64,000 nt of DNA from Candidatus Omnitrophota bacterium (GCA_016932855.1 JAFGCB010000016.1:554-64553), one strand, 5' to 3'. Shown: positions 15,664-52,862, numbered from the stretch's first letter. Program-made: numbers and translations. The notes: generated by a model from the letters alone, not told the origin.

Positions 15664-15689
15664 TTTATGACACAGATTATCAGCGATAA

Positions 15690-15795
15690 ACTCGATCCTG
15701 GATGCTCGATCCTAGATCCTTGTTTTTAGGGCATCGCGTATCGGGTGTCGTTGTTTTTCCTACGTTTGCACCCCAAGCCCGATACCCGAATATTT
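15690..15795. repeat. Family A intergenic palindromic repeat (GCGTATCGGGTGTCG ... CCCGATACCCGAATAT), copy A1, preceded by a ctcgatcct direct repeat.
   Basis: The same motifs are seen at 18221-18310 and 30069-30150. Confidence 0.6.
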
Positions 15796-15799
15796 TTGG

Positions 15800-18220: not shown

Positions 18221-18310
18221 CCTTACGCTCCATTTCGGGTATCGGGTATCGCGCATCGGGTATCGTTTTATTCCGATACTCTACACCCCATACCCGACAC
18301 CCGAATATCA
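18221..18310. repeat. Family A intergenic repeat copy A2, lying between trpB and trpA inside the trp operon.
   Basis: cgggtatcgggtatcgcgcatcgggtatcg ... ccccatacccgacacccgaatat. Confidence 0.6.
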
Positions 18311-20120: not shown

Positions 20121-20164
20121 CTTAAGATTATCTCTTTACTATTTTAATGATAAATCCATTCTAA

Positions 20165-20375
20165 AATCCCAATTTCCAATACTACCAAACAAATCCCATC
20201 CTTCGATTACACTCAGGATGGCCCTGAGTATTCCCGAAGGGCCAACTTCCAAATCCCAAGATGTTTTGGATTCGGGATTTTGCCTGCCTGCCGGTAGGCA
20301 GGTATTTACTTGGGATTTGGTAATATTGGGTTTTGGGATTTAATTTGGGTTTTGTCATTTGAAATTTGGAATTCC
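20165..20375. repeat. Family B intergenic repeat copy B1 (AAATCCCAAA/TTTGGGATTT units; CCAATACTACCAAA ... TTTGGTAATATTGG inverted arms; central CCTGCCTGCCGGTAGGCAGG hairpin). It lies between trpF and trpC.
   Basis: Shared motifs with 36421-36606 and 52720-52800. Confidence 0.6.
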
Positions 20376-20384
20376 GACAATATA

Positions 20385-26370: not shown

Positions 26371-26392
26371 CTTAGAACCTCCTTAAAACATC

Positions 26393-26532
26393 AAACCTAT
26401 TGTCAAAAATTTTAATAATATTTTAATAAATCAAAATTCAAAAGGAAAAAGTCAAAATTTCAATTCAAAAGTTAAAAGTTTTGGATTTTGAATTGCAATT
26501 TTGCATTTTGAATTTTTACTTTTAAGTTTTCA
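26393..26532. repeat. Family C AT-rich intergenic repeat copy C1 (CCTATTGTCAAAA ... TCAAAAGGAAAAAGTCAAAATTTCAATTCAAAAGTTAAAAG), with internal inverted aaaattcaaaa/ttttgaatttt.
   Basis: Near-identical blocks at 42411-42530. A related copy lies at 37020-37140. Confidence 0.55.
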
Positions 26533-27780: not shown

Positions 27781-27932
27781 TGCTACCTCCTTTGGTCTGG
27801 CACTAGAGCGCTTAACCATAACGCTACCTCCGTTCGATAAGAGAACAGAAAACAGAATACAGACAACAGAAAAAGACTCTTCTTCTTTCCGGGCTCTGCA
27901 CTCTATGCTCTGCGCTCTCTAAAAGTTTGTAA

Positions 27933-28526
27933 TTAACTCCCAATAATTTTTTGATATAAAACATCCGCTTTCTTCTTTAATTCCTTTAAGGTCCCGGTGT
28001 TCTCAATAACAAAGTCAGCTCTTTTTATCTTCTTTTCTAAAGGCAACTGCTCTCTGATCAAGTTTATAACCTGCTTCTTAGTATATCCCGATTCTATTGC
28101 CCGCTTCAGCTGCAGCTTAAGAGGACAATTTACTAATGTTATTTTATCAAACAGCCTGTCAAGCTTAGCCTCAAAAAGCAAAGGAACTTCCACGATTAAA
28201 ACTTCGGCTTTTTTCTCATAAGATGCAATCCTTTTCTTAAGGTGTTTTATAATATAAGGATGGACAATCCTGCTAAGAGCCTTAAGATCGCTTCTGCCGG
28301 GATTGTTCAACAATCTTTGCTTAAGTTTTCTTCTGCTTACCCTGCCCTGTTGCAGTATATCTTTTCCGAATTTTTCTACCAGACTTCTCTTTAAAAAGCT
28401 GTCTTTTAAAAGAAGTTCATGATAAATCCTGTCAGCGCTCAAAAAGGCTGCCCCTTTTTTCTTAAAAAACTTAGCAAGCGTGCTTTTCCCGGTTGCAAAA
28501 CCTCCGGTCAAACCTATAAGAATCAT
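27933..28526 (-). CDS. coaE: Dephospho-CoA kinase.
   Basis: MILIGLTGGFATGKST P-loop with CoaE layout. Confidence 0.85.
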   Translation of the reverse strand: MILIGLTGGFATGKSTLAKFFKKKGAAFLSADRIYHELLLKDSFLKRSLVEKFGKDILQQGRVSRRKLKQRLLNNPGRSDLKALSRIVHPYIIKHLKKRIASYEKKAEVLIVEVPLLFEAKLDRLFDKITLVNCPLKLQLKRAIESGYTKKQVINLIREQLPLEKKIKRADFVIENTGTLKELKKKADVLYQKIIGS

Positions 28527-28568
28527 CCTCGTCTCTTATTTAAGGTCAAAACGACATAGATATAAAGA

Positions 28569-28632
28569 GTGCTAGGCGTTAGGTGCTAAGTTATTAATAT
28601 TTAGTTGGCACCATGCGCCTTGCCCTAAGCAC
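28569..28632. repeat. Family D palindromic repeat copy D1 (GTGCTAGG...GGTGCTAAGTTATTAATATTTA...CCTAAGCAC), overlapping the glgA stop codon.
   Basis: A 23-nt block (AGGTGCTAAGTTATTAATATTTA) is identical to 40978-41000. Confidence 0.6.
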
Positions 28633-30001
28633 TCTTGTAAAGCTGTACATAATCCTTGGCTGCTGTTTCCCAAGAGAAATTAAGACCGGCGACTCTCTTC
28701 TGAAGCGCTGTTAAAGAATCTTTATCCGAAAATAAGGAGCTTGCCCTTTCTACGGCATCTAGCAGGGCCTCCTGGGAATACTGCAAAAAAACAAAACCGT
28801 TACCTTTGGACTTATCCCGGGTGTAATCAACTACCGTATCTTTAAGCCCCCCGGTAGCGTGGACTAAAGGCAGAGTAGAATATTTAAAACTTATCATCTG
28901 CGACAAACCGCAAGGCTCAAACCTTGAAGGCAGAAGGAAAACATCGCTGCAGGCGTAAATCCTATGAGCCAGCGTTTCATCAAACTTAATATGCAAAGAA
29001 AAGCTCTGGGGATGCTTTTTAGCTAAAGAAGAAAGGATATCATGGTACTTTGGATCTCCGGTGCCCAAAATTACCACCTGGTGATTCTTTAATATTGAAG
29101 GCATGGCACCGGAAAGGATATCCACGCCTTTCTGCTCGGTAAGACGCGATACCATACCTAACAGCAAGGTATTTTTATCTTTCTTAAGCCCGAGCTCCTT
29201 TTGAAAAGAAACCTTATTCTGAGCTTTTTTATCTAAATTCTTTTTATCATACTGCAAATATATAGCCTTATCAGAATCCGGATTCCAAACATTGTAATCA
29301 ATAGCGTTTAAGATGCCCGAAACTTTGTGGCTGTGCTGTCTCAATATATGGTCAAGACCGCAGCCGGCTTCTTTCGCCTGAATCTCCTGGGCATAGCTGG
29401 GGCTTACCGTATTTACCCTGTCAGCTTTAATAATCCCGCTCTTAAGAAAATTAAGCTTTGAATAAATCTCCAAGTCCGGCATGTACCCTTTAGAAAGTCC
29501 CAGAAGATCAAATTGGTCTAAGCTAAACAGCCCCTGAAAAGCTAGGTTGTGAATAGTAAGAACGGTCCTAGCCTTTTTGAAAAATTTATCTTTTTTATAA
29601 AACTCCTCCAAATATAAGGGTAAAAGCGAAGACTGCCAATCGTTGCAATGTATGATATCGCAGGAAAAACCTATCTTCTTAAGCACCTCCAAAGACTTCC
29701 TGCAAAAAAAACTAAACCTCTGCAGATTGTCGGGATAATCACCTTGAGCGGTATTATAAAGCTGGTCTCTTAAGTAATAATTATCGTTTTTTATAAACAC
29801 CACCTCAATATTCTTTCCAACCTTTGACAGACCGAAATCTTCGCTTAAGCTTTCGGGCTTTATTCCTTTATAAAGAGGCATAAAAATCTTAACCTCAAGA
29901 CCCAGCTTTTCAAGGCCTAAAGGAAGCGCTCCGGCTACGTCAGCAAGGCCCCCGGTCTTAGCGAAAGGAAAAACCTCAGACGAAAGAAATGCAACTTTCA
30001 T
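28625..30001 (-). CDS. glgA: Glycogen/starch synthase (GT5, ADP-glucose type).
   Basis: KVAFLSSEVFPFAKTGGLADVAGALP N-terminal motif. The start at 29999-30001 (MKV) with GGAGG upstream is preferred. Confidence 0.8.
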   Translation of the reverse strand: MKVAFLSSEVFPFAKTGGLADVAGALPLGLEKLGLEVKIFMPLYKGIKPESLSEDFGLSKVGKNIEVVFIKNDNYYLRDQLYNTAQGDYPDNLQRFSFFCRKSLEVLKKIGFSCDIIHCNDWQSSLLPLYLEEFYKKDKFFKKARTVLTIHNLAFQGLFSLDQFDLLGLSKGYMPDLEIYSKLNFLKSGIIKADRVNTVSPSYAQEIQAKEAGCGLDHILRQHSHKVSGILNAIDYNVWNPDSDKAIYLQYDKKNLDKKAQNKVSFQKELGLKKDKNTLLLGMVSRLTEQKGVDILSGAMPSILKNHQVVILGTGDPKYHDILSSLAKKHPQSFSLHIKFDETLAHRIYACSDVFLLPSRFEPCGLSQMISFKYSTLPLVHATGGLKDTVVDYTRDKSKGNGFVFLQYSQEALLDAVERASSLFSDKDSLTALQKRVAGLNFSWETAAKDYVQLYKSA

Positions 30002-30068
30002 TTTTTTCTCCTCCATTTAAAAGTTTTAGGTGCTTAAGACCAAAACCTTTTCTTTAATCCTCAATTTT

Positions 30069-30150
30069 TCGGGTGTAGCGTATAGGATATCGGGTTTTGG
30101 GAAAATAAATACGACACCCGATACGCGATGCCCGATACCCGAAAGACAAG
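30069..30150. repeat. Family A intergenic repeat copy A3, in inverted orientation, between glgA and polA.
   Basis: cgacacccgatacgcgatgcccgatacccgaa. Part of it is the reverse complement of gcatcgcgtatcgggtgt at 15731. Confidence 0.6.
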
Positions 30151-30192
30151 AATCTTGAAACGATTGTCTAGGATCGAAACTTGGTCTTAAGC

Positions 30193-32721
30193 CTATTTAC
30201 TGGCTTCCAGCCAGGTGTTTCCCCACTGAATATTCACCTTTATCGGCACCGACAAAGAAACAACCTTTTCCATTATATCTTTAGTTAAACTCTTAAGCTC
30301 CTCTAGCTCCGAAGGCTCGACATCAAAAACAAGCTCATCGTGTATCTGAATAATCAGCCTCGAAGAAAAATTCCTGGACTTAAATTCTTGAAAAACCTTT
30401 ATCATGGCCAACTTAATAATATCAGCCGCCGTGCCCTGAATAGGAGCGTTTATAGCCTGACGCAGGCTATACTCAACAAGCCCCTTATTGTAACTTTCAA
30501 TATTTTCCAAATAGCGCCTCCTGCCGAAAATAGTGGTAACAAAACCCTGCTTTTGGGCAAGTTCTTGAGTATAGTCGATATAGCGCTTAACGCCGGGGTA
30601 ACGCACGAAATATTCGGAAATAAAACTCTCTGCTTCGTCTAAAGATACACCCAGCTCTTTAGCCAAACCGTATGGACTCATCCCGTAAACTATCCCGAAG
30701 TTTATCCGTTTGGCGAATTCTCGCTGGCTTAAAGAGACGTCCTTTTCTTGCTTAGAAAATAACAAGGATGCTGTAAACCTATGGATATCTTTATTGGTAT
30801 TAAAAGCCTCTAATAGATGCTCGTCCTTGGAAATATGAGCAAGTATTCTTAGCTCTATCTGGGAATAGTCGGCAGCTAAGATAACCCCGCCTTTAAAAGA
30901 AGGGATAAATGCCGCCCTTATGGCCTTGCCCTGTTCCTCTTTTATAGGAATATTCTGCAGGTTAGGTGAAAAGGAAACTATTCTTCCGGTAGAAGTTGAA
31001 ACCTGGCTAAAGCGGGTAAATATCTTTCCTTTATGCGCCTGGGCTTGGCTTATAAAAGGCTCTATATAGGTGGAAAGAAGTTTTGTAAGTTTTCTGTAGC
31101 TTAATATCTTTTCTATTACAGGATGCTTAGTCTTCAATTTACTTAAGGCCTCCTCGTTAGTGGAAAAACCCGTCTTAGTTCTTTTTACTGGCTTAAGGCC
31201 GAGCTTGCTAAAAAGAATTTCCGAGAGCTGTTTGGGAGAATTAAGATTAAACTTCAAGCCGGCGGTATCAAATATCTCTTTCTCTAAAGAAGATTGTTTT
31301 TCTTTTAGAGAAGAAAGATACTTTTTAAGAAAATCTAAATCTATGCCGATTGACGAAGATTCCATCCAAGCCAAGACCTCTGCGAGAGGAGTTTCAATCT
31401 CATAAAAAAGCTTATCCAGCGAATGATTCTTAAGTTTATCTTCCAGAACCCTGTATACCCTTTCTATAAAACTGACCTTGCTTAACTGGTCGATTTCCTG
31501 CTGGGCTATGTTTAAATGCTCCCAGATGATATCTTCCAGACTTAAATCCTGAAGATGAGACTTAAGAATAAACGAAGCTATCATTACATCAAAAAAAGGA
31601 AGCCTAAGTCTTATATTATATTTAGCAAATTGCAAAATAGCTTCCTTAATATCAAAAGTTACCTTTTTTATATCCGGATCCTCAAGATGCTCTTGGATTT
31701 TCCCCGGGGCTGCCTTATAAATTAAGCCTGAAAAATAGATATAAACGCTCTCCCGGCAAATATAAAATATGAACTCTTTATCCTGTTTTATCTTCTTGGC
31801 AACCGAAGGGCTGTATTCTTTTACAGAGACATCAGAACCAGGCGCTGAGGAAGAAAACTCTTTCATTAAGGATTTAAACTCCAATTCCCTAAATATAGAA
31901 CAAAGCCTGTCCTTATCAGGGAGTCCTATCTTAAGATCTTCCAGCTTTAGATCTATGGGTACGGCCCTATCCAAGGTAGCCAAATCTTTACTTAAAAACG
32001 CTGAATCCTTGGACTCTGCTATGAGTTTTCTTAAGGAATCCCTGGGAATTTTCTGCATGTTCTCTAGAATATTTTCAATGCTTCCGAAGCTCTCGATTAA
32101 ATTTACCGCGTTCTTAGGGCCTATGCCCTTTACACCGGGAATATTATCAGTCGAATCACCGCACAAGCCCAGTAAATCGGGTATATTTCGGGGAGCCACA
32201 CCCATATCTTTTAATACTCTCTGCTCGTCGAGCAATATTTCCTTATTAGGGTTATACAGCATGACGGTTTTATCTTCGACAATCTGAAGTATATCCTTGT
32301 CAGAACTAAAAACCAAACACTTAAAACCAAACTCTTTAGCTTTATCGGCTAAAGTCGCTATAACATCGTCGGCTTCGTAGCCCGGCATCTGGGCGATAGG
32401 AATTCTTAAAGCCTTTACTACTTCCTGTATCCTGGGAATCTGAAGTTTAAGCTCGTCGGGAGTAGGAGGCCGGGTTATCTTATAATCTTTAAATTTATCC
32501 TGCCTAAAAGTCTTTCTGGATACATCAAAGCATATCCCCAGATACAAAGGTTTAAATTCTTTAAGAATCTTTTTTAAAATATTAACGAATCCAAAAACAG
32601 CTCCGGTAGGAAAGCCCTGCGAGTTTCTTAGATCCCGGATTGCAAAGAACGCTCTGTAAGAAAAACTTGTTCCGTCTACAAGATATAATGTCTTTTCAGG
32701 ATCGAATGCGATTTTTTTCAC
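30193..32721 (-). CDS. polA: DNA polymerase I.
   Basis: 5'-3' exonuclease N-terminus (LVDGTSFSYRAFFA) and family A polymerase motifs (RRxAKxxNFGxxYG, QIHDELV). GTG start. Confidence 0.9.
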   Translation of the reverse strand: MKKIAFDPEKTLYLVDGTSFSYRAFFAIRDLRNSQGFPTGAVFGFVNILKKILKEFKPLYLGICFDVSRKTFRQDKFKDYKITRPPTPDELKLQIPRIQEVVKALRIPIAQMPGYEADDVIATLADKAKEFGFKCLVFSSDKDILQIVEDKTVMLYNPNKEILLDEQRVLKDMGVAPRNIPDLLGLCGDSTDNIPGVKGIGPKNAVNLIESFGSIENILENMQKIPRDSLRKLIAESKDSAFLSKDLATLDRAVPIDLKLEDLKIGLPDKDRLCSIFRELEFKSLMKEFSSSAPGSDVSVKEYSPSVAKKIKQDKEFIFYICRESVYIYFSGLIYKAAPGKIQEHLEDPDIKKVTFDIKEAILQFAKYNIRLRLPFFDVMIASFILKSHLQDLSLEDIIWEHLNIAQQEIDQLSKVSFIERVYRVLEDKLKNHSLDKLFYEIETPLAEVLAWMESSSIGIDLDFLKKYLSSLKEKQSSLEKEIFDTAGLKFNLNSPKQLSEILFSKLGLKPVKRTKTGFSTNEEALSKLKTKHPVIEKILSYRKLTKLLSTYIEPFISQAQAHKGKIFTRFSQVSTSTGRIVSFSPNLQNIPIKEEQGKAIRAAFIPSFKGGVILAADYSQIELRILAHISKDEHLLEAFNTNKDIHRFTASLLFSKQEKDVSLSQREFAKRINFGIVYGMSPYGLAKELGVSLDEAESFISEYFVRYPGVKRYIDYTQELAQKQGFVTTIFGRRRYLENIESYNKGLVEYSLRQAINAPIQGTAADIIKLAMIKVFQEFKSRNFSSRLIIQIHDELVFDVEPSELEELKSLTKDIMEKVVSLSVPIKVNIQWGNTWLEASK

Positions 32722-33034
32722 AGAGTTTTAAGGGATAGGGAGGCGAAACTCCTATAAATTTACCTTAAACGATACTATTAGAATATGGTGGATTTTGGTC
32801 GATAGATTTTGAAAAAGGATTATTCTTAAGCTCTTTCCAAGGCTTATAAAAAACTGGAAAGAGCTTGATTACAAAGATTCTAATAAGATTACAGAGATTT
32901 GTAGTTAGAAAGACAATCTCTGAAATCTATATCTAATCACCGTAATCATAAATTTTTCCCTGATTTTTTCCCTAAAAATGTATCCCCTTACTATAAAGAG
33001 TTAAAAAATTAATCTATGAAGGGAGGAAAAATTC

Positions 33035-33856
33035 TTATTCTCTTGGGACTTCAGGAACTAACGTGAGCGCTTTCCTTAACTCTTGCATTAAAGATAAATA
33101 ATCTTTTCTGTCTAAATAACTCAGGCTGTTATTTAAATGGGCTTTGATTTCTTCTCTGGCTGCCCCTTCCCGGGCAGTATTTTGATACTTAGTAGCCTCG
33201 GCAATCAAGGTCTCATCAGACGGCTGTAAAAGAACAACCGCCTCAAACTCTTTAATCGCCTCTTTATAGAGGCCGCTGGAAAAAGCTTGAAGACCTGCTT
33301 CAAAATGCATCTTGGCTTCCTGGAGCACTCTTAAGCGCTCCTCTTCCTTCAGTACGGCCATATTGCGGGAAAAAACCTCTGCTTCTTCAGCCAGCTCTTC
33401 CTGTCTGGCCTGAGGATATGTGCCTAATTTTATAAGGTGCTCGCGGGCTTTCTGCCTCCAATAACCGCCTTTTTTTCCCATAAGATATCTTTTTTTCCAG
33501 TAGTGAGTGGCCTTAAGGGGCTGATTTCTCTTTTCATAAAGAAAACCCAGATTGGAGTAAGGAGCAAGATAATTAGGGTCGATTTCTATTGCTTTCAAAT
33601 ACATAACCTCGGCCCTGTCTAAATCACCCATCGTCTCGTATACTACGCCGGCATCATTATAGGCCTCCTTATAAAAGGGGTTCATCTGGGTGGCTTTCAA
33701 ATAAGAAGAAAGCGCTCCTTTTAAATCTCCTCTTGTCTGAAGCTCGTAGCCCTCTTGCCTATACGATAGGGCCTCTTCTTCCATGACGCCGTAAACAGGG
33801 AAAACCAAGAAAAGGCAGGAAATAAGAATACAAATAGATAAAAACGTTTTCAGCAT
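33035..33856 (-). CDS. Secreted TPR-repeat protein.
   Basis: Signal peptide followed by TPR-like repeats (AYNDAGVVYETMGDLDRAEVMYLKAIEIDPNY). Confidence 0.6.
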   Translation of the reverse strand: MLKTFLSICILISCLFLVFPVYGVMEEEALSYRQEGYELQTRGDLKGALSSYLKATQMNPFYKEAYNDAGVVYETMGDLDRAEVMYLKAIEIDPNYLAPYSNLGFLYEKRNQPLKATHYWKKRYLMGKKGGYWRQKAREHLIKLGTYPQARQEELAEEAEVFSRNMAVLKEEERLRVLQEAKMHFEAGLQAFSSGLYKEAIKEFEAVVLLQPSDETLIAEATKYQNTAREGAAREEIKAHLNNSLSYLDRKDYLSLMQELRKALTLVPEVPRE

Positions 33857-33939
33857 AACTTTTTTTTACATTAACATATTATTATTTCTCTGTCAATAAA
33901 AAACTCAGTAGTTTCAAGGGGTTACATAAATTTACGCCC

Positions 33940-35040
33940 CTAGAGTTGCTTGAGCAGCATTTCAATATCAACATACTTCTCAACAATATCCTTTGCCATT
34001 CTGGTCTTCTGGCAATCCTCGGGCTTTATTTTAACCGTCAAATCATGCACGCTGGAAGCCACGCTGTAGGTATCTGCCTTTGCTAAAAGAAGAGGAATCT
34101 GGGCCCGTCTTACCAAATCGATAATAGTCTGGTGAGGCTTAATCCCGCCGGTTAATACAATGCCGGCAATCTTTAAACCTTCTTTAGCCCTGTCCATTTG
34201 AAAGCCGACTACCGCCAAAATCAAATCCTCCCTATCCCCAGGGGTTATGACAAGACAACGGTCGGAAAAATAGCTTAGAGCATCGTGAGGCGCCATTGCC
34301 CCTACTAATATCTTATCTATGTATACGCCTATCCCGTTCTTTCCGGCCAAAAGCTCAAAACCCAACTCTTCTAGTACCTGACCCACGGTTGGCTCGGACA
34401 ACGACCTTACGTAAGGAATAACTCCCAAAACTTTAAGACCTCTTTTTTTTAAACCCATACGGACTATTTTATTAACTTTCTCGTATTTATCAGCCTTTAC
34501 CTTATTGATTATCGCCCCGATAACTTCAACCTTTTCTTTCTCAAATAAGGCCTTGCTAAGCATTATTTCATCAATAGGCCGGCCTATGCCGCCGCTGGCA
34601 ACTATTACTACTTTCGAATCTAACAGCTTGGCTACCGCGGCGTTAGAAAGCCCAAAGACCGAACCTACCCCGGCATGACCCGTACCTTCGATTACTACCA
34701 GATCTTTGTCTTTACTTACAGCCTCAAATGAATTCTTAATCTTTTTTGTAAGCTCCTTATTGCTGCCCTTTAGAATATATTTCTTGGTAAAGCCCTTCTC
34801 GATAGCTATCGGGCTCATATCCTGAATTTTGCACTCAATGCCGCAAACCTTTTCTATCAATACCGAATCCTCGTCTACTTTGTGACCCTGTTCAACAAGA
34901 TATCTCTGGCCCACCGGTTTTATGAAACCGACCTTTTGAAATCTCTCTTTGAGGGCGCAGATTAAGCCGAGGCTGACGCTGGTCTTTCCATCATTCTGCC
35001 CGGTTGCCGAAATAAATATCTTGTGCACCTTATTCTTCAT
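33940..35040 (-). CDS. Phosphotransacetylase N-terminal-domain-like protein (BioD-like plus DRTGG domains; no PTA catalytic domain).
   Basis: KIFISATGQNDGKTSVSLGL resembles the Pta N-terminal segment. DRCLVITPGDREDL is a DRTGG-like motif. Confidence 0.55.
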   Translation of the reverse strand: MKNKVHKIFISATGQNDGKTSVSLGLICALKERFQKVGFIKPVGQRYLVEQGHKVDEDSVLIEKVCGIECKIQDMSPIAIEKGFTKKYILKGSNKELTKKIKNSFEAVSKDKDLVVIEGTGHAGVGSVFGLSNAAVAKLLDSKVVIVASGGIGRPIDEIMLSKALFEKEKVEVIGAIINKVKADKYEKVNKIVRMGLKKRGLKVLGVIPYVRSLSEPTVGQVLEELGFELLAGKNGIGVYIDKILVGAMAPHDALSYFSDRCLVITPGDREDLILAVVGFQMDRAKEGLKIAGIVLTGGIKPHQTIIDLVRRAQIPLLLAKADTYSVASSVHDLTVKIKPEDCQKTRMAKDIVEKYVDIEMLLKQL

Positions 35041-35092
35041 AGTTTTGTCTTACACAGATGATTGCAGATAAACCATCTGTGATCATCTGTGT

Positions 35093-36385
35093 TTATTTTT
35101 TTTCCCACTTCAAAAGCTCTATAACTTTTCCCAAGGTGGAGCCTTTATTAATTTCTTCTCGTAATCTATTTTCCTGTTCCAAAATGCTCATGGCCCGGTT
35201 GGCAACCTCAACTGCTCTATCTTCGGGAATACAGACTACCCCGTCATCATCCCCTACTATCCAATCTCCGCTGCACACCCTTATTCCTGAAATTTTAACG
35301 CAGACTCCTATTTCCCCGAAACCTTTTGGCTCACCGGCAGTAGGAGTAATGAGCTTGGAGAAAACAGGAAATCTTAGCTTGCGTATTTGCGAAGTATCCC
35401 TGACCGCTCCGTCTACTACTATTCCGGAAAGCTTCCTGTTTAGGGCCGCGCAGGTGGCAAGCTCCCCCCAAACAGCTGGCCCTACCCCCCCGGCATCTAT
35501 TACCAAAACATCGCCTGCCTGAGCGCAATCAATAGCTTCTACTGTCTTTGCCCAATCTCCGGGATAGGTACGCACAGTAAGCGCCCGGCCGACCATTTTT
35601 ATACCCTTAAAAAGGGGATGGATTTCTTTTAAATCACCGCTTCTGTGCAGGGCATCGGAAAGATTAGCGGCTGAAACCTTCATTAAGACTTCACGAACCC
35701 CGGAAAAAGAAACTCTCTTAAAATACTCGCTTTTAATCGCCCTGCCGGTAGTAATAACTTTCTGAATGGCTTTAGCTGCTTGCTTAGGATTCTTGGCCTT
35801 GGTAACCGCGCCGCCTACTATCACTATGCTCGCTCCGGCTTTTACTGCCAGGTGAGCGGTCTGGGAATTTATTCCTCCGGCGCAGGCCACAGGGATAGAA
35901 ACCGCCTTAGCGACTTTGCGCAAGCGGGAGAAAGGATCTTTACCCTGCATCTGCTCATCAATAGGGCAATGCACGCTTATGTAATCAACTCCCAGCTCCT
36001 GAATTTTCCGGGCTCGTTTTTCTATCTGGCTTTCTTTGACCTCGATAAGGTCTACTTCCACTTTTATGCCGTAGTTTTTGCCGGCTTCAACGCACTCTCT
36101 TATGGTGCTATCGGAAGAAAGGCCCAGCACGGAAATAATATCTGCTCCGGCCTTAGCTGCTGCCTCGGCTTCGATTCTTCCCACGTCCATAGTCTTCATA
36201 TCAGCGATTATCGTAGCTTTTGGAAACTTTTTGCGAAGGACCCGTATGCTATTGAGGCCTTCGCTTTTTATCAAAGGGGTTCCGGCTTCAATCCAGCTAA
36301 CCCCTGCCGCTACAGCTTCTTCAGCTACGGCCAAAGCTCGTTTGAGATTTAAAAAATCCAAAGCAACCTGTAATACCGGTTTCAT
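35093..36385 (-). CDS. Fusion of a 3-hexulose-6-phosphate synthase-like (OMPDC-family) N-terminal domain and an RraA-like C-terminal domain.
   Basis: N-terminus KPVLQVALD...IEAGTPLIK...IIADMKTMD matches the HPS pattern. C-terminus DVLVIDAGG...GELATCAALNRKLSGIVVDGAVRD matches the RraA pattern. The ATG at 36383-36385 with a GAGG RBS is preferred over the TTG at 36406. Confidence 0.6.
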   Translation of the reverse strand: MKPVLQVALDFLNLKRALAVAEEAVAAGVSWIEAGTPLIKSEGLNSIRVLRKKFPKATIIADMKTMDVGRIEAEAAAKAGADIISVLGLSSDSTIRECVEAGKNYGIKVEVDLIEVKESQIEKRARKIQELGVDYISVHCPIDEQMQGKDPFSRLRKVAKAVSIPVACAGGINSQTAHLAVKAGASIVIVGGAVTKAKNPKQAAKAIQKVITTGRAIKSEYFKRVSFSGVREVLMKVSAANLSDALHRSGDLKEIHPLFKGIKMVGRALTVRTYPGDWAKTVEAIDCAQAGDVLVIDAGGVGPAVWGELATCAALNRKLSGIVVDGAVRDTSQIRKLRFPVFSKLITPTAGEPKGFGEIGVCVKISGIRVCSGDWIVGDDDGVVCIPEDRAVEVANRAMSILEQENRLREEINKGSTLGKVIELLKWEKK

Positions 36386-36420
36386 ATCCTCACACCTTAA
36401 TTCCAACTGTCAAAACCCAA

Positions 36421-36606
36421 ATTAAATCCCAAACCCCAATACTTCCAAATCCCAAACTTTATACGAATGTACGAATTTTTTACGAATCTACGAATAATCT
36501 AAAAGACCATTCGTATATTCGCAGTGATTCGTAAATTCGTAGGTTTGTTTGGTAGTATTGAAGATTGGAATTTTGGATTTGACATTTGGAATTTGTCGTT
36601 AATATT
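36421..36606. repeat. Family B repeat copy B2. It contains a direct array of four TACGAAT units mirrored by four ATTCGTA units (36472-36550).
   Basis: ccaaatcccaaac ... gtttggtagtattg arms. tacgaatgtacgaattttttacgaatctacgaata / attcgtatattcgcagtgattcgtaaattcgtag. Confidence 0.6.
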
Positions 36607-37026
36607 CTATTCTCCGATTATCTGCACAACAAGCTCGCGCGAACGAGAGCGGTTATCGAAATCAATAAAAACAATCTGCTGCCAGGTGCCCAGAAGTAAA
36701 TTCTTGTCAGAAAAAGGTACCGTAAGAGACGGGCCTAATAAGGCGGCCCGGACATGAGAGAAACCGTTGCCGTCCTGCCAGCGTATATTGTGATGGTACT
36801 CGCCCTTACGAGGCGCTATTATCTCGAAAGCCTCTTTTATATCCTCTATTAAACCTGGCTCATACTCAATAGTAGTAAGAGCTCCTGTTGAACCAGAAAC
36901 AAAAATCGTAGCTATGCCTTTTTTTAGAGAACTTTCCTTAAGGCAGGAATCTACCTTATCAGTAATGTCTATTATATCACTCTCGCCCTTTGATTTCAGT
37001 TTTATAGTTTTTGTTACAACGGACAT
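36607..37026 (-). CDS. YjbQ/UPF0047 family protein (secondary thiamine-phosphate synthase family).
   Basis: Family-typical ...IEYEPGLIEDIKEAFE....HHN...DGNGFSHVRAALLGPSL. Confidence 0.7.
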   Translation of the reverse strand: MSVVTKTIKLKSKGESDIIDITDKVDSCLKESSLKKGIATIFVSGSTGALTTIEYEPGLIEDIKEAFEIIAPRKGEYHHNIRWQDGNGFSHVRAALLGPSLTVPFSDKNLLLGTWQQIVFIDFDNRSRSRELVVQIIGE

Positions 37027-37140
37027 AACAAAAAAATTAAAATTTAAAAACTAAAAACGCAAATTAAAGACTTAAAGATCTTAGCCCAAGATTTAATATT
37101 GAAAATACGTTAGTATCTACTTTTGATTTTTTAGTTTTGA
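37020..37140. repeat. AT-rich phased A/T-tract element related to family C (copy C3).
   Basis: ttttgattttttagttttgactttttactttt resembles the C1/C2 tcaaaa periodicity. Confidence 0.3.
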
Positions 37141-37144
37141 CTTT

Positions 37145-37933
37145 TTACTTTTTCTTGTAGGCGTCTAAATATGAATCGCAATAGATATTCTTATTAAGTA
37201 AAAGTTCGGCCGTAATCATAGCGTCCATAAGCTCTTTATCCATCGGGTCTACGATAGCGGCGTCCAATCCTTGAGCCTGAGCCATAATCAGAAAAGTCCT
37301 ATTAATAAGACTGCGGTTTTCCGTGCCTTGAGAAACATTGCTTAAACCTACCACTGTCTTAGGAGGCGGGTTATACAAAAACCTGAATTCCCTTAGAGCT
37401 TCCAGGGCCTCGAGAGACTGGGGCTGGGCTACATTAACCGGAAGTACAATAGGGTCAATATAAAGCTCTTCTAAATTAAACCCTGCCTCGACACAAGAGG
37501 TAAGAATTGCCGCGGCATACTCGCTCCTCTGGGCTCTGTCTCTGGGAACGCCGCTTTTGCCGAGAGTAAGACCGATCAATCTTGCCTTGTACTGCTTGGC
37601 CATAGGAACAAAAATGTCTAGTTTTTCTTTATCGGCGGTAGATGAGTTTACCATTGCCTTGTTTTTGACTACTTTTAAGCCTTCCTCGATAACAGCCGGC
37701 TTTGTACTGTCAAGGCAAAGCCCTGCGTCAACCACTTCTTGAATTGTTTCAACGAGCCACTTCATAGCCTCCTGGGCGTCCTTGGCAGCCGGGCCGACAT
37801 TTACATCCAGCATAGACGCTCCGCTGGCTACCTGTTTTTTGGCTAAATCCTGAATAACTTTTTTATCCCGCTCTTTTATGGCTTTACCTACATCTTTGTA
37901 CATACCGTTGATTCTCTCGCCGATAACTAGCAT
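37145..37933 (-). CDS. acsE: Methyltetrahydrofolate:corrinoid/iron-sulfur protein methyltransferase (MeTr).
   Basis: MLVIGERINGMYKD...LDVNVGP...LSNVSQ closely follows the AcsE pattern. The ATG at 37931-37933 is preferred over GTG 37939. Confidence 0.85.
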   Translation of the reverse strand: MLVIGERINGMYKDVGKAIKERDKKVIQDLAKKQVASGASMLDVNVGPAAKDAQEAMKWLVETIQEVVDAGLCLDSTKPAVIEEGLKVVKNKAMVNSSTADKEKLDIFVPMAKQYKARLIGLTLGKSGVPRDRAQRSEYAAAILTSCVEAGFNLEELYIDPIVLPVNVAQPQSLEALEALREFRFLYNPPPKTVVGLSNVSQGTENRSLINRTFLIMAQAQGLDAAIVDPMDKELMDAMITAELLLNKNIYCDSYLDAYKKK

Positions 37934-38024
37934 CTCCACCTCACTTCTTTAGGTAGAAACCAGACTTAAATGCCAGATTCCAAAAGCAAATATCTTCTTC
38001 TGGTTACTGGTTGCTGGCTTCTGG

Positions 38025-38990
38025 TTACTTTTTCATCAGCTTATCAATAGTCTGATTTACAATCGATATTGCCTTAGGATGACGCATAACCAAGATGTCC
38101 GCTCCGCAGAGAAGCATGGAAGTAGCGGTGATTACTTCCCACATTAAACCGCGCTCTACTTCCGGGCCCCATTCCGGATGCTCGGCTTGAGGAGTCTTTG
38201 CCTCTTTAGCCCTCCAGGCCTCAAATCCCACAAAACAGATAAAAGGCATGGAAAGCATCTTATCCCCGGCCAAAGCCGCAAGGCGGGCTCTTTCCATAAT
38301 CGAATAGGCGTATTCCATACCGTATCCTAAAGCCCCGATAGTAGGATTTATGGCAATCTTTTCTAAAGGAAAGCCCATATCAGAAATAAGTATATTTACC
38401 TGCTTGGCAATATTGATATCAATGGGCGACTCGGCAATAATGCTGTGACCGTCGGCAAGACAGGACGCGGTAAGGGTCTTGTAATTTTCCTGCGTAGCAT
38501 CACCAAAGAGACAATTTTCTCCCTTAGCAGCCTCACTACACTTAGGAAGCACAAGGTTGTCTTTCTCGTCATTTCCCGAACCTAAAATAATCAAAGGTAC
38601 GCCCACTGCCCCAAGAATTGCCTTAACAGTACTTGCCGCTTTATCAGGTGAAGCATCTCCAAAATCAGGATGGGTACTCTGAAGCTTAAGGCACAGGACT
38701 TCAGCCTTATATTCGTTGACGCACTTTTTCGCCCATTCCACGGGATTATCCAGAACACCGTTAAACGGTTCACTAAGAGCCTTCGGCCAATCAGGCGGTT
38801 TTGTATCCAGTATCTCCATAGCGATGACAGGCCTGTGAGGCATCTGACCGTCGCTGAAAAGATAGGGTAGGGTCGAAACTCCTCCTACAGTAAGCGTGGA
38901 ACTGCGGCTGCCGCCTTCTTCCATACCGGAGCCTAACTTCAAAGTATTCACCTTATTCACCCATTTGTCTCTTATCAATTCTACAGCCAT
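38025..38990 (-). CDS. acsD: Corrinoid iron-sulfur protein small subunit.
   Basis: MAVELIRDKW...GDKMLSMPFICFVGFEAWRAKEA... matches the AcsD pattern throughout. Confidence 0.9.
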   Translation of the reverse strand: MAVELIRDKWVNKVNTLKLGSGMEEGGSRSSTLTVGGVSTLPYLFSDGQMPHRPVIAMEILDTKPPDWPKALSEPFNGVLDNPVEWAKKCVNEYKAEVLCLKLQSTHPDFGDASPDKAASTVKAILGAVGVPLIILGSGNDEKDNLVLPKCSEAAKGENCLFGDATQENYKTLTASCLADGHSIIAESPIDINIAKQVNILISDMGFPLEKIAINPTIGALGYGMEYAYSIMERARLAALAGDKMLSMPFICFVGFEAWRAKEAKTPQAEHPEWGPEVERGLMWEVITATSMLLCGADILVMRHPKAISIVNQTIDKLMKK

Positions 38991-39004
38991 TGCTCATTAT
39001 CTCC

Positions 39005-40957
39005 TTATTTACCTTTAATCTTAACCGTGGGAAATCTATTTAAATCCGTATGGGGAAAAAAGAGACTCGAGACATATTCATCCATATAGCTGGACTCGAC
39101 ACTTAGCTCGATATAGGTCATCTTCCTGGCGATATTCTCGGATTCATCCTTTGCTTGATACGATAGGAGAATCTCCCGTGAGCCTACCAGAGAGCTGTTG
39201 CCGATAAAAGAAAACCTCTCTCTTTCAAGATCAGGCAAAAGCCCTATAGCGATCGCCTTGTCTATATCAAGATAGGTCCCAAACCCACCGGCTATATAGA
39301 ACTGCTCGACGTCTTTAAATTCCAAGTTCATCTTTCTAAGGAGTATGGAGCTTGCCGAATATATGGCGCCTTTGGAACGTTTCAGGTTATCCAAATCCTC
39401 CTCAGTAATGACTATGTCAAAGTCTACAGCCGCGTCTTTCTTAAAAACAAGGACAAATTCCCTGCTTTCGCCAGAACTGCGGAGCCTGGGCGAAGATATC
39501 TTTTCGGAAAATTTTCCGTTTCTGTCGATGATTCCGCTGGTCAAAAGTTCGGCTAAACAGTCGATATAGCCTGAACCGCATATTCCTTTCGGCTTTGCCT
39601 TACCGATAGTGATAACTTCCACATCATACGTATTCTTATCTATAGCAACTCTCTGAATAGCTCCCTCGGCCGCCCGCATACCGCATTTTACACCGCTGCC
39701 CTCAAAGGCCGGACCGGCTGAAGCAGCGCAGGAAACCATCCACTCTTTGTTGCCCAGAACTATCTCTCCGTTGGTACCTACATCAATGAGTAGGGTGAGT
39801 TTATCTGTCCGGTTGAGGCCGCAGGCAAGGACCCCAGCAGTGATGTCACCTCCTACATAGGTGCTTGTCCCGGGAACACAGGCCAAAAGCCCCCGGGGGT
39901 TTATTTTGATGCCGGCTTCCGCCGCTCGTATCACCGGAACAAAGTTAGCCGTTGAAACATAAGGCTCGCGTCTTATAAATTTAGGATCGACTCTTAAAAG
40001 CAAGTGTATCATAGTAGTATTACCGGCGCACTCCACTGCGTTTACATCGTTTAAATTTATTTTATTGTCATTGACCAATTCTTTAATTATCCCGTTGATA
40101 TTATCAATTACCGCGTGGTGAAGCTTTTCTAGGCCTTCGCTTTCCGAAGCATAGACAATCCTGGTAATTACATCGCTTCCAAACGTTACCTGTTTATTGT
40201 AGGTGCCTTTCGTCCCCAGTATCTCTTTCGTATTAAGATCTACCAGCTGTCCGGTAACAGTGGTAGTGCCGATATCCAGAGCAATGCCGTAGTTTCTAAC
40301 TGAAGTATCTCCCGGCTCAATAGAAACAATCTCTACTGTCTCATTTCGCTTCCCCAAAAGCGCTGTGACCTTCCAATCGCTCTCGCGCAAAAGCCTTCCC
40401 AATCTCTTTATATTGGTAAGACCTGCCTGCATTATTGGGATATCTCTATTCTTCCTGATCGCTCTATAGAGTCGTTCTAGATCGCTTATCGTATCACTAA
40501 GCGTAGGGGGCTTAAGCTCAAGATAAAGCTTTGTCGCCAGAGGGCTGGGCTTAAAAATCCCTTCCTCGACGGTCAATGCCGCCTTACCCAGATCAACTGC
40601 CTGGCTGTACATCCCTTTAAGACGCAGAAGTTTGGCGTCTTCATCGGAAATCTTATCCAGCTCAACACCTGATTCAGGAGGGACTTCCACTTCCACATCA
40701 CTGTGGACAGTCGTCTGGCAGGCCAAAACATACCCTTTTCTTCTTTCATCAAGGGTTATGCGTCCAGAAGGTTCGGTCTTGAATTGTCCTCTTTTCACGA
40801 TAACCTTACACCTGCCGCAGACTCCGTCCCCGCCGCAGCTTGAATTAATATAGACTCCGGCTTCTACAGCCACTGAAAGCAGGTCTCTTCCTTTATTTAC
40901 TTCCAGAGTAGTGGGGTTGGGGTGCAAGAAGGTTACGATACAACTATCCTTATCCAT
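39005..40957 (-). CDS. Reductive activator of corrinoid Fe-S protein (RACo-like): N-terminal [2Fe-2S] ferredoxin domain plus ASKHA-fold ATPase.
   Basis: CGGDGVCGRCKV...LACQT plant-type ferredoxin motif followed by ~550 aa of ATPase. It sits between acsC and acsD. Confidence 0.8.
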   Translation of the reverse strand: MDKDSCIVTFLHPNPTTLEVNKGRDLLSVAVEAGVYINSSCGGDGVCGRCKVIVKRGQFKTEPSGRITLDERRKGYVLACQTTVHSDVEVEVPPESGVELDKISDEDAKLLRLKGMYSQAVDLGKAALTVEEGIFKPSPLATKLYLELKPPTLSDTISDLERLYRAIRKNRDIPIMQAGLTNIKRLGRLLRESDWKVTALLGKRNETVEIVSIEPGDTSVRNYGIALDIGTTTVTGQLVDLNTKEILGTKGTYNKQVTFGSDVITRIVYASESEGLEKLHHAVIDNINGIIKELVNDNKINLNDVNAVECAGNTTMIHLLLRVDPKFIRREPYVSTANFVPVIRAAEAGIKINPRGLLACVPGTSTYVGGDITAGVLACGLNRTDKLTLLIDVGTNGEIVLGNKEWMVSCAASAGPAFEGSGVKCGMRAAEGAIQRVAIDKNTYDVEVITIGKAKPKGICGSGYIDCLAELLTSGIIDRNGKFSEKISSPRLRSSGESREFVLVFKKDAAVDFDIVITEEDLDNLKRSKGAIYSASSILLRKMNLEFKDVEQFYIAGGFGTYLDIDKAIAIGLLPDLERERFSFIGNSSLVGSREILLSYQAKDESENIARKMTYIELSVESSYMDEYVSSLFFPHTDLNRFPTVKIKGK

Positions 40958-40972
40958 TATAAATCTTCTTAT

Positions 40973-41030
40973 GTGCTAGGTGCTAAGTTATTAATATTTA
41001 TCTAGCACCTGGCACTTTGCGCCAGGTGCC
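40973..41030. repeat. Family D palindromic repeat copy D2, with an additional perfect hairpin GGCACCTGgcactttgcgcCAGGTGCC.
   Basis: GTGCTAGGTGCTAAGTTATTAATATTTATCTAGCACC. 23 nt are identical to D1. Confidence 0.6.
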
Positions 41031-41049
41031 TCTTAAAAATATTTACTCT

Positions 41050-42390
41050 CTATGAATTCTTTAAAGATCGAAGATAGGAAGGTATGCCGGCAGCCTCTTT
41101 AGGCCCGACTTTAACCTTCCAGCCTGATTCTTCTTCTAAAGGAGCGCTTAAGACAGCTACATAACCCGGTATAATCACTTCCTTATGCGAAACCTTATCC
41201 TTTATGCCGCACTCATTTAAAGTCTTGGCGATTGTCTCGGCCGTAAACTTCTCTGCTGCCCAGGCGGTGAGGACACTTAAGCCTTCGGCAAAAGAAGCGA
41301 TTATATAGGCGCCGACCCTGCTTGATTCTACTTCTGACTCGACTGAATAATAACTTAAAGAAAAATTAGTGGTTACAAGCACCGGCGACTTATCGCTTAC
41401 CTGGCCTACTTCATAAACCTTAGCCTCTACCTGGAGGGGCTTCTGGGGATCTGTAAATATATTCTGCCTTAGGGTAAGAATAGGCAAGACCTGCCAGGGC
41501 TCTACTCCTTTCATAATAACAATACTTGCGTATTTAGCTACATAACTTGCGGCCTCAGTTACTTCCTGATAAGGACAAGTAGAGGCGGTTATGGCTATTG
41601 TAGGATACCCCAAAGGTCTAAAAGTCTTCTTTAAGGCCAGCTTTCTTACCTGGGTAAGTTCCTGTATCTTTTTAGGTAAATCTTTATCCTCGCAGTCAAG
41701 CACCAAGTCTTCCACTCCTCTTGCGGTTATTTTCTCAACAAGAACCGCCAATTCATCAAGGGTCTGCGCCTTTACCGCTAAGGGAAGCGAACGTTCCTTG
41801 GCAAGCTCTGCCATTTTTTCGAAGTTATCCTTATCCGCCGCGTAAATTAAAGGACGTCTATCTTTTACAATATCCAGACCCTCTTTCATCACTTCTGGAT
41901 TATCGCTCATTAGCACCAAACCTAAATCTGTCTGGGAGGAAACCCTTTTTACTAGCTCTACAAAGGTTTCCTTATTTGAGCTTGCGCATTTTAAAGCTAT
42001 TAGATCCACCTTGATCTCTTGACCTACCCGTTCAAATTTTAATTTGTTTATGGAAGAGACTTTTTGGCTTACCTCGTCGCTGGTTAAAGTATCTTCGATT
42101 AAAAAACCGAGCCCTGTGGGATGATAAAAAGTCTCCTCGTGGCGGAACATGACTGTTTCGTTGCCCACTTCAAGCTTTTGGTCATCTTTTCCGATACTTA
42201 CAAGCTTAATAGGCGGACGCGAAGCGCTATCAAGAGCAGCTTTGCCGGCTTCGGTAATACGCGGACATTTGCTTAAATCCACCTTCTTAGCGGCAAGCTG
42301 CATGGCAAAAGCAAGACAGGTGGGGAAACCACACTCTTTACAATTAGTCTTAGGCAAATGCTTGTAAATATCCAATCCTGATAAAGCCAT
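41050..42390 (-). CDS. acsC: Corrinoid iron-sulfur protein large subunit.
   Basis: MALSGLDIYKHLPKTNCKECGFPTCLAFAMQLA N-terminal [4Fe-4S] motif and overall AcsC pattern. GGAGG RBS. Confidence 0.9.
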   Translation of the reverse strand: MALSGLDIYKHLPKTNCKECGFPTCLAFAMQLAAKKVDLSKCPRITEAGKAALDSASRPPIKLVSIGKDDQKLEVGNETVMFRHEETFYHPTGLGFLIEDTLTSDEVSQKVSSINKLKFERVGQEIKVDLIALKCASSNKETFVELVKRVSSQTDLGLVLMSDNPEVMKEGLDIVKDRRPLIYAADKDNFEKMAELAKERSLPLAVKAQTLDELAVLVEKITARGVEDLVLDCEDKDLPKKIQELTQVRKLALKKTFRPLGYPTIAITASTCPYQEVTEAASYVAKYASIVIMKGVEPWQVLPILTLRQNIFTDPQKPLQVEAKVYEVGQVSDKSPVLVTTNFSLSYYSVESEVESSRVGAYIIASFAEGLSVLTAWAAEKFTAETIAKTLNECGIKDKVSHKEVIIPGYVAVLSAPLEEESGWKVKVGPKEAAGIPSYLRSLKNS

Positions 42391-42410
42391 ATATCCTCCT
42401 TATATGTCTT

Positions 42411-42530
42411 AACCTATTGTCAAAATCTTAATCTTAATATTAGTAAGTCAAAACTCAAAAGGCAAAACTCAAAATTTCAAGTTAAAATCCAAAATTTTTA
42501 AAAATCCTGATATTTTAAATGTTTTTTAAA
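42411..42530. repeat. Family C AT-rich repeat copy C2, between acsC and acsB.
   Basis: acctattgtcaaaa...tcaaaaggcaaaactcaaaatttcaagttaaaatccaaaa. Confidence 0.55.
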
Positions 42531-52687: not shown

Positions 52688-52719
52688 TTTTTTTAGAAAC
52701 TAATTGAATGACAAATTAC

Positions 52720-52800
52720 AAATCCCAAATCCCAATAGATTTTGGATTTGGGATTTTGGATTTACTTGGGATTTGGTAGTATTGGAACTTGGGATTTGAT
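52720..52800. repeat. Family B repeat copy B3 (caaatcccaaatcccaat...ttggatttgggattttggattt palindrome plus the TACTTGGGATTTGGTAGTATTGG motif).
   Basis: Shares TACTTGGGATTTGGTA(A/G)TATTGG with B1 (20306-20330). Confidence 0.6.
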
Positions 52801-52862
52801 TTATCTGCCTGCTCGCCTCTTGGCGAAACCGAGGGCCGACAAGTAGGGTAAACGACGAAGAA

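Follow-up and report, generated by a model that had tools for sequence, protein, structure and literature searches.

Two copies of a small heptamer-unit hairpin repeat at unrelated operon junctions of a Candidatus Omnitrophota bacterium

Heptamer repeats have been known since the short tandemly repeated repetitive (STRR) sequences of cyanobacteria. The GGGAATC repeats of Xanthomonas and the GGGGA(C/T)T repeats of Nostoc are heptameric simple sequence repeats (SSRs), and 70-75 convergent inverted pairs per Xanthomonas genome are capable of forming stem-loops (Rehm et al. 2015, PMC4692102). These SSRs share a G-quadruplex-forming GGGNATC consensus and their function is unknown (PMC4692102). Replication slippage has been proposed for heptameric SSRs (Mrazek 2007, as cited in PMC4679880 and PMC4692102). 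The TAACTGA repeats of marine Beggiatoaceae, cyanobacteria and Bacteroidetes are arranged in 169 direct sets versus one indirect (MacGregor 2015, PMC4679880). Here we analyse a stretch of 64,000 nt from a Candidatus Omnitrophota bacterium (GCA_016932855.1 JAFGCB010000016.1:554-64553), hereafter the window, in which a small element, family D, lies at two operon junctions, as D1 between glgA and coaE and as D2 between acsC and the gene for the reductive activator of the corrinoid protein (RACo). We find that D1 and D2 are copies of one hairpin repeat whose arms are made of 7-nt units, and that D is one family among many 7-nt-periodic hairpin families here. Its closest known analogues are the heptameric SSR arrays and inverted pairs of Xanthomonas and cyanobacteria; our literature searches returned no description of such heptamer hairpins in Omnitrophota.

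Genes are named after Pfam assignments on the predicted proteins. By these assignments glgA, coaE, acsC and RACo had been named correctly in an earlier note on this DNA, and all four lie on the minus strand (Table 1). The same note had reported a 23-nt identical element at the two junctions. The 23-mer, AGGTGCTAAGTTATTAATATTTA, does occur twice without mismatch, at 28581-28603 and 40978-41000 on the plus strand, and the exact identity in fact extends over 24 nt, TAGGTGCTAAGTTATTAATATTTA, which makes this core the longest exact dispersed repeat of the window. With up to three mismatches allowed there is no third site of the 23-mer in the window, nor is one met in 100 shuffles, and the additional copies for which the note had suggested a search are thus absent from these 64 kb. 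The D1 and D2 sites are identical base for base in an independent Logan assembly of SRR13394437, which rules out an assembly artefact; strain variants were also sought, via contigs encoding identical proteins, and the matches came from the same sample only. When the core is masked, the 5' flanks of D1 and D2 still align (p = 0.008), as do the 3' flanks (p = 0.04). Because an exact core of 24 nt is joined by independently alignable flanks, the homology of D1 and D2 reaches past the core, and the elements, of 76 and 77 nt, are larger than the note had drawn them.

Family D elements are inverted arrays of GTGCTAG-like 7-nt units (GTGCTAG, GCGTTAG and GTGCTAA among them) that flank an AT-rich apex. 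In a 7-nt register the sense strand of D1 reads AAGAG TGCTTAG GGCAAG GCGCATG GTGCCAA [-] CTAAATATTAATAACT TAGCACC TAACGCC TAGCAC [-] TCTTTATA, with AAGAGUGCU/AGCACUCUU as its outer stem, and that of D2 reads AAGAG GCACCTG [-] GCGCAAA GTGCCAG GTGCTAG ATAAATATTAATAACT TAGCACC [-] TAGCAC ATAAGAA GATTTATA. Aligned in this way the two copies are separated by four indels, each of 6-7 nt, and by no other difference in length. Self-identity at a fixed offset (lag), compared with that of 2000 shuffles, reaches 0.46 for D1 and 0.55 for D2 at lag 7, values that none of the shuffles attains; it is raised at lag 14 too, and at no further lag. Each arm holds only two to three imperfect units and thus falls short of a long near-perfect array, which typically has four or more; perfect arrays of the TRF type do occur in relatives, as in L017 (below), but not in D. 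The internal palindrome described earlier is present, but the perfect one is the apex TATTAATA rather than TTATTAATA, and CTAGCACC, taken to be common to both copies, belongs to D2 alone, D1 having TTGGCACC and CTAAGCAC instead. The additional hairpin of D2 is likewise real, though with nine and not eight perfect base pairs on the plus strand (GCACCTGGC/GCCAGGTGC); in the sense RNA it has 12 bp, two of them G-U pairs.

Both elements fold strongly. Folds were judged against shuffled sequence on both strands (200 shuffles each for D1 and D2), and predicted energies are -26.3 kcal/mol (z = -3.4) sense and -33.6 kcal/mol (z = -4.6) antisense for D1, and -26.6 kcal/mol (z = -4.4) sense and -25.7 kcal/mol (z = -4.5) antisense for D2; on either strand of either element no shuffle folds equally well. 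The plus-strand fold of D1 contains a 7-nt bulge that amounts to one unpaired extra unit. In D2 the entire 92-nt spacer (40958-41049) folds as a single structure, at the base of which a predicted A-U helix joins the first bases past the acsC stop to the stretch next to the RACo AUG. Within it, the GC-rich hairpin P1 and a longer alternative, P2, both use the segment CAGGUGCU and are mutually exclusive, because the units of D2 are arranged forward, reverse, forward. P1 dominates in the sense RNA (pair probabilities of at least 0.9, versus about 0.01 for P2), and P2 forms only when P1 has its 5' arm blocked, with a fold of -19.5 kcal/mol. We considered riboswitch-like alternative pairing and rejected it: P1 prevails, neither hairpin has a 3' U-tract, and the two hairpins are the expected by-product of the unit order. 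P1 is followed by AGAUAAAUAUU and a U-tract follows neither element, which disposes of an intrinsic terminator; no terminator-like site on either strand, and no promoter-like site, is found at D1 or D2. On the explanation favoured below, the D elements are not operators, promoters or classical terminators.

Such folds might also be what is selected. The elements might be functional intercistronic RNA stem-loops that protect the upstream 3' end, offer sites for RNase III or RNase E, act as leaky terminators independent of a U-tract, or couple translation, their sequence being free as long as the hairpin stays. Besides the strength of the folds and the basal helix of D2, a compensating unit pair in D1, both arms of which depart from the consensus unit of D (GCG-CGC for GTG-CAC), is consistent with this, as is their placement past the stop of one gene and ahead of the ribosome-binding site of the next where the genes are co-directional, and the report that Xanthomonas heptamer repeats are mostly transcribed (PMC4692102). 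Of 23 window spacers 17 fold better on the sense strand, as do 42 of the 64 spacers across the loci compared (Wilcoxon p = 7e-4), which we had taken as a sign of selection at the RNA level. That argument is withdrawn: the sense advantage of -3.76 kcal/mol is matched by -3.77 kcal/mol in mononucleotide shuffles, so that it is an effect of composition (corrected p = 0.40). Given that the asymmetry vanishes upon this correction and that D1 folds better antisense, structure at the DNA level and structure at the RNA level are not separable here. Neither element is followed by a U-tract, and efficient termination at D2 would leave RACo and the downstream acs genes promoterless. We therefore hold a function as RNA stem-loops to be possible but rather unlikely; the junctions of related genomes, considered below, speak on both sides of it.

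The perfect identity in non-coding DNA, which the note put at 23 nt and which extends over 24 nt, had also suggested strong selection, for example on an operator, that is, a DNA site through which a sequence-specific regulator would co-control the glgA-coaE and acsC-RACo junctions. D2 contains a dyad, AGGTGCTA-N15-TAGCACCT, and a gene for an Rrf2-family regulator lies in the window (58355-58771), both of which would suit such a site. The clean dyad is missing from D1, however, and there is no promoter-like site for a regulator to act upon. A conserved position relative to the start codons, which had been proposed as a check, is not observed: the core lies 53 nt from the downstream ATG in D1 and 19 nt in D2, and 21 nt versus 49 nt from the upstream stop. 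Orthologous junctions do not preserve the sequence, and the flanking genes have no functional link. Nor is the identity itself exceptional, since two other families of the window reach exact matches of 23 nt. We regard an operator as highly improbable, and the tempting regulatory reading falls with it: an operator common to the acetyl-CoA pathway and the genes for glycogen and CoA has no support here.

Comparison with related genomes indicates how the two junctions have changed. We fetched 19 comparison loci (L-numbers) and compared the junctions of 12 relatives. D is found at none of these orthologous junctions, which hold unrelated elements or no spacer. The nearest RACo homologue from outside the sample is 82% identical. 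Between acsC and RACo, the stop and start codons overlap or stand 0-5 nt apart in six loci (L005, L006, L007, L008, L010 and L016). The two closest relatives carry heptamer elements unrelated to D there: a hairpin made of GACACAA-type units in L012 (82% amino-acid identity) and, in L013 (81%), ACNACAT-like units in a direct array. In L004, L009 and L014 the junction contains a small extra gene. At the glgA/coaE junction of L017, which retains the gene order from RACo to coaE, about ten GAGTAGA/GAGTAGC units face a complementary arm of about four; the two genes overlap in L018, and L019 has an unrelated hairpin. The GAGTAGA family of L017 has a second copy in the acs operon, between CdhD-small and acsE, and the arms of its two copies differ in unit number, so that L017 mirrors the D1/D2 pair with another family. 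With unrelated elements or no spacers at the relatives' junctions, D is specific to its lineage, and unrelated families have colonised the same junctions repeatedly. That different families occupy the same junctions in the window and in L017 also suits RNA stem-loops of free sequence, against which stand the many relatives that have no spacer there at all.

The small gene found where D2 lies in the window (L004 9682-9988, L009 9745-10000, L014 3736-3948) encodes about 70 amino acids, is membrane-protein-like and has a weak PLDc_N match. A further observation from these loci is an acsB (acetyl-CoA synthase/carbon monoxide dehydrogenase beta subunit) homologue of 1810 aa in L016 (2867-8299), which carries two inteins (Intein_splicing and LAGLIDADG_3).

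As the earlier note had recognised, D1 overlaps the glgA stop codon, which lies in its outer arm. The window's GlgA ends in ...LYKSA*, of which the D1 arm AAGAGTGCTTAG provides the codons for K-S-A and the TAG stop. In L017 the protein ends in ...LYKVASRE*, encoded by GTAGCGA GTAGAGA GTAG units, and relatives free of elements end in ...LYEQMQQA* and ...LYESMEK*. In the window and in L017, then, different families have put residues of their own in place of GlgA's native tail. At several junctions of the window the stop codon is itself the first unit of an array, for example in TAA|CCAG AAGCCAG CAACCAG TAACCAG, which hints at birth in situ from a stop-codon heptamer or at insertion targeted to stops. 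Arrays open at the stops of rpmE (26167), acsE (37145) and CdhD-small (38025), and a site of this kind in L017 lies at 11380-11400; TAA|GAC TAAAGAC GCAAGAC is another example of such an opening.

D1 and D2 have ample company. Of the 32 window spacers scored, about a dozen hold hairpins made of heptamer units, long imperfect structures whose arms are quasi-tandem units of 7 nt (sometimes 8 nt), with GGGTATC, CCAGAAG, GCAGAGC, GACTAAA, TACGAAT, AAATCCC and TTTTGAA among the units. At least eight different unit families are present within 64 kb, and at least four besides D recur in the window. The families recur in either orientation and some elements are nested in others. Several predicted folds of the class consist of helices of about 6 bp with a single mismatch every 7 nt, and the folds of 29 among 64 co-directional spacers reach z < -2. 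Pooled over 76 spacers, taken from the window together with 11 Omnitrophota loci, identity amounts to 0.334 (lag 7) and 0.324 (lag 14), compared with about 0.275 at other lags; coding DNA has a 3-nt period only. The excess at lag 7 is strong in the window, L008, L009, L016 and L017, and is missing from L004, L006 and L014 and from a KSB1 locus that served as control. Class elements are lacking in the sole divergent spacer available and in a spacer with a conserved sigma-70-like promoter, a distribution that RNA stem-loops would also explain; the arrays appear to avoid true promoter regions. This promoter, TTGACA-N17-TAATGT within ...TTATTGACAGAGAAATAATAATATGTTAATGT..., lies upstream of a TPR gene (33857-33939) and is conserved in L017 (6275-6432); no heptamer array is seen there, and lag-7 identity in the window is 0.22.

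The two families that rival the D core in identity are hairpin families as well. The GGGTATC/GGGCATC/GCGTATC family has, in addition to its polA/glgA copy, copies at 15664-15799 and 18232-18310, and an exact inverted match of 23 nt (15729-15751 / 30111-30133). The AAATCCC/GGGATTT family has three copies (20121-20384, 36407-36606 and 52688-52862) and an exact inverted match of 23 nt (20332-20354 / 36411-36433); with at least four G3 runs in its G-rich arm, a G-quadruplex is conceivable. Its loop hosts other elements, namely the TACGAAT family at 36.5 kb and, at 20.3 kb, GC-rich palindromes such as CCTGCCTACCGGCAGGCAGG. The copy at 20121-20384 is a composite of 264 nt at the trpC/trpF junction of the trp operon.

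A copying mechanism is a different matter. D1 and D2 might be a non-autonomous element mobilised by a transposase, of the repetitive extragenic palindrome (REP) type with its associated tyrosine transposase (RAYT) or of the MITE type (transposable elements of miniature size with inverted repeats), whose partner enzyme would have its gene elsewhere in the genome and would recognise either the hairpin or the inverted repeats at the ends. D1 has such repeats (AAGAGTGCT/AGCACTCTT), and nested elements and families in either orientation also agree with mobility. Recent mobility had been proposed earlier, and part of that proposal stands: the copies are homologous at unrelated junctions, and compared with every relative examined D2 is an insertion. 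The machinery that it would call for is not seen. The 38 window proteins, all housekeeping, contain no transposase, Y1 or RAYT domain by Pfam; no direct target-site duplication, the mark of a MITE, flanks D1 or D2; the window holds no parent insertion sequence (IS) with D-matching ends; and blastn-short over the window and the 19 fetched loci finds no third D copy. A 20-mer from the D core has no match in GTDB species genomes or in IMG/VR, and its two matches in JGI metagenomes, in L002 and L003, are both unrelated to D. Moreover, eight or more unit families in 64 kb are too many for cognate transposases, and a 7-nt periodicity with indels of whole units is foreign to REPs and MITEs. Mobilisation by a transposase is therefore, in our judgement, quite unlikely.

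The L002 match lies just within the left end of an IS4-like element (L002 440-500 and 2010-2060), in its subterminal region; the terminal inverted repeats of that element, CAGCCCTTTAAAGGTGCT, are lacking in D and the match was judged to be due to chance. The L003 match falls in the N-terminal coding region of a gene. Two classes of recombination site were also tried and rejected. The core begins GGTGC..., as a dif/Xer site might, but by eye nothing in it matches the conserved XerD arm TTATGTTAAAT, and it is present twice, at sites 12 kb apart. An integron attC site is suggested by GTTAGGT in D1, which fits GTTRRRY, but the inverse core site is missing from the same strand and the neighbours are syntenic housekeeping genes. 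Rfam gives no match at gathering score over the whole window, and in E-value mode only chance matches to miRNA hairpins, at 16-19 bits where the gathering score is 70.

The explanation we favour, with some confidence though by no means with certainty, is that D1 and D2 are diverged copies of a young, lineage-specific intergenic hairpin repeat of about 77 nt, built of heptamer units, which is prone to slippage, spreads by copying and is tolerated within operons. An element would be copied into, or seeded at, a junction just past a stop codon, and on arrival would sometimes replace the last codons and the stop, as at glgA. Replication slippage would then add whole 7-nt units to its arms or remove them, and the 6-7-nt indels between D1 and D2 may be the trace of this. 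Local slippage would not suffice: because the D copies have a non-repetitive AT-rich apex within their common 24 nt, whole elements are probably copied between junctions. Families would turn over fast between lineages, and the same junctions do hold unrelated families or nothing. Inside polycistronic mRNAs the elements would be co-transcribed, and the insert may be tolerated since, by folding on itself, it keeps the upstream stop near the downstream start region. The class would then consist of genomic 'weeds', or of structural punctuation, with no sequence-specific regulatory target.

Several points weigh against this explanation. The D copies number two and come from a 64-kb contig alone, and the agent that would copy them is not seen among the 38 window proteins, nor is its trace in the form of a target-site duplication. 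With two to three imperfect units per arm, the label 'SSR' is a loose one. Counted by eye, the apex and 3' arm have no substitution in about 29 positions and the 5' arm about four in 21, an asymmetry that could reflect constraint on the core. Finally, the occupation of many junctions by different families in the window and L017 could reflect selection for a hairpin, that is, function, and not neutral colonisation.

D might be part of something larger. As a speculation that we hold to be unlikely, Omnitrophota may have an undescribed and widespread system of intercistronic heptamer-array hairpins, with many unrelated unit families per genome, helices often of about 6 bp and a mismatch per 7 nt, arrays that open at the upstream stop and at times provide it, fast replacement at the same junctions between lineages, and spread of whole elements from junction to junction without an element-specific transposase. 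If true, such hairpins may be the general cistron punctuation of the group and stand in for U-tract terminators as signals for processing or termination, and D would be one young family among them.

Table 1. Positions of the D elements, their flanking genes and other hairpin elements in the window
Feature	Position	Strand	Remarks
24-nt core, D1	28580-28603		AT-rich apex and first unit of one arm
24-nt core, D2	40977-41000		identical to D1 core
D1 element, 76 nt	28561-28636	-	glgA/coaE junction
D2 element, 77 nt	40958-41034	-	acsC/RACo junction
GC-rich hairpin P1 of D2	41004-41030	-	sense RNA GGCACCUGGCGC-AAA-GUGCCAGGUGCU
glgA stop codon TAG	28625-28627	-	inside D1 outer arm
coaE	27933-28526	-	Pfam CoaE 1.9e-42; downstream of D1
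glgA	28625-30016	-	Pfam Glyco_transf_5 2.3e-76; upstream of D1
RACo (reductive activator of the corrinoid protein)	39005-40957	-	Pfam RACo_C_ter 7.6e-107; downstream of D2
acsC/CdhD (large corrinoid Fe-S protein subunit)	41050-42390	-	Pfam CdhD 1.6e-110; upstream of D2
coaE/rho spacer element	27820-27932	-	GCAGAGC-type units paired with CTGTTxT; -37.3 kcal/mol, z = -4.8; lag-7 identity 0.44
polA/glgA spacer element	30017-30192	-	GGGTATC/GGGCATC family; lag-7 identity 0.46
yjbQ/OMPdecase spacer elements	36407-36606	-	TACGAAT hairpin nested in CCAAAT/GGGATTT hairpin; z = -10.7
CdhD-small/acsE spacer element	37940-38024	-	CCAGAAG/CCAGCAA/CCAGTAA array starting at stop (TAA|CCAG)

The surroundings of the elements are those of a housekeeping region. 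From about 2.3 kb to 49.6 kb all confidently called genes of the window are on the minus strand, and positions 1-49573 string together the trp, acs and polA-glgA-coaE-rho-rpmE-prfA housekeeping operons. The polA/glgA junction orthologous to that of the window has, in L017, a GATACTC/CGAGTATC hairpin. The leaders of rpmE and acsC (26373-26482 versus 42390-42499) are 74% identical over 110 nt, each with TTTTGAx arrays followed by TTTTGACAATAGGTT...AAGGAGG, and a related array lies at 37027-37144; the likeness could mean another repeat family or a shared leader motif.

These results have a bearing on annotation, in that perfect short identities between spacers are commonplace in Omnitrophota metagenome-assembled genomes, where they stem from repeat families, and in that such families can even change how housekeeping genes end, in their last codons and their stop. 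With many unit families, hairpins as the norm and turnover visible at orthologous operon junctions, Omnitrophota offer a natural experiment in which the hypotheses of slippage versus selection, and of DNA versus RNA, could become testable with existing metagenomes and metatranscriptomes.

How, then, does family D compare with described systems? Some likenesses are with hairpins of other kinds. As in intrinsic terminators, D2 has a GC-rich stem-loop (P1) shortly past a stop codon, but it lacks the 3' U-tract and lies inside a conserved operon, directly upstream of a promoterless essential gene. Like MITEs, D is small and intergenic, has terminal inverted repeats and differs in presence between relatives; unlike them it has, in the window, neither a target-site duplication nor a parent IS, and inside it is built as a heptamer array and not as a transposon with a deletion. 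REPs and bacterial interspersed mosaic elements (BIMEs; e.g. PMC3333891) are, like D, short imperfect intergenic palindromes in multi-copy families, often just past stops, and their co-transcription with flanking genes and capacity to stabilise the upstream mRNA would be a further likeness. They differ in that no RAYT is seen among the 38 window proteins, a GTAG-type 5' tetranucleotide is not common to the families here, and the class to which D belongs has 7-nt periodic arms, whole-unit indels and many families per genome.

The heptamer repeats come closer. TAACTGA repeats and the cyanobacterial STRR heptanucleotides are, like the D class, short intergenic arrays just upstream of starts, and TAACTGA repeats also lie beside housekeeping genes, even within ribosomal-protein operons, with no link to gene function; the CAGTTAT/AACTGTC arrays of L009 resemble them. 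TAACTGA repeats, however, are almost all direct and of a single unit, whereas the D class consists mainly of inverted hairpin arrays of many units. The Xanthomonas and Nostoc SSRs share with the D class the 7-nt units, a strong preference for non-coding positions between aligned ORFs and near stop codons, the variation in number and sequence of units between related genomes at the same junction, and inverted array pairs able to form stem-loops, and the GGGTATC/GGGCATC family of the window fits their GGGNATC consensus. Where Xanthomonas and Nostoc have one dominant unit per genome, at least eight unrelated families are packed into 64 kb here and hairpins are the norm; D is not G-rich and a G-quadruplex is impossible for it; and its copies have a common 24-nt non-repetitive AT-rich apex, whole elements being dispersed. 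Many unrelated unit families per genome, the hairpin as the norm and the dispersal of whole elements with a common apex set these repeats apart from the known heptamer systems; the class is unusual and has been little studied, and within it family D is quite ordinary.

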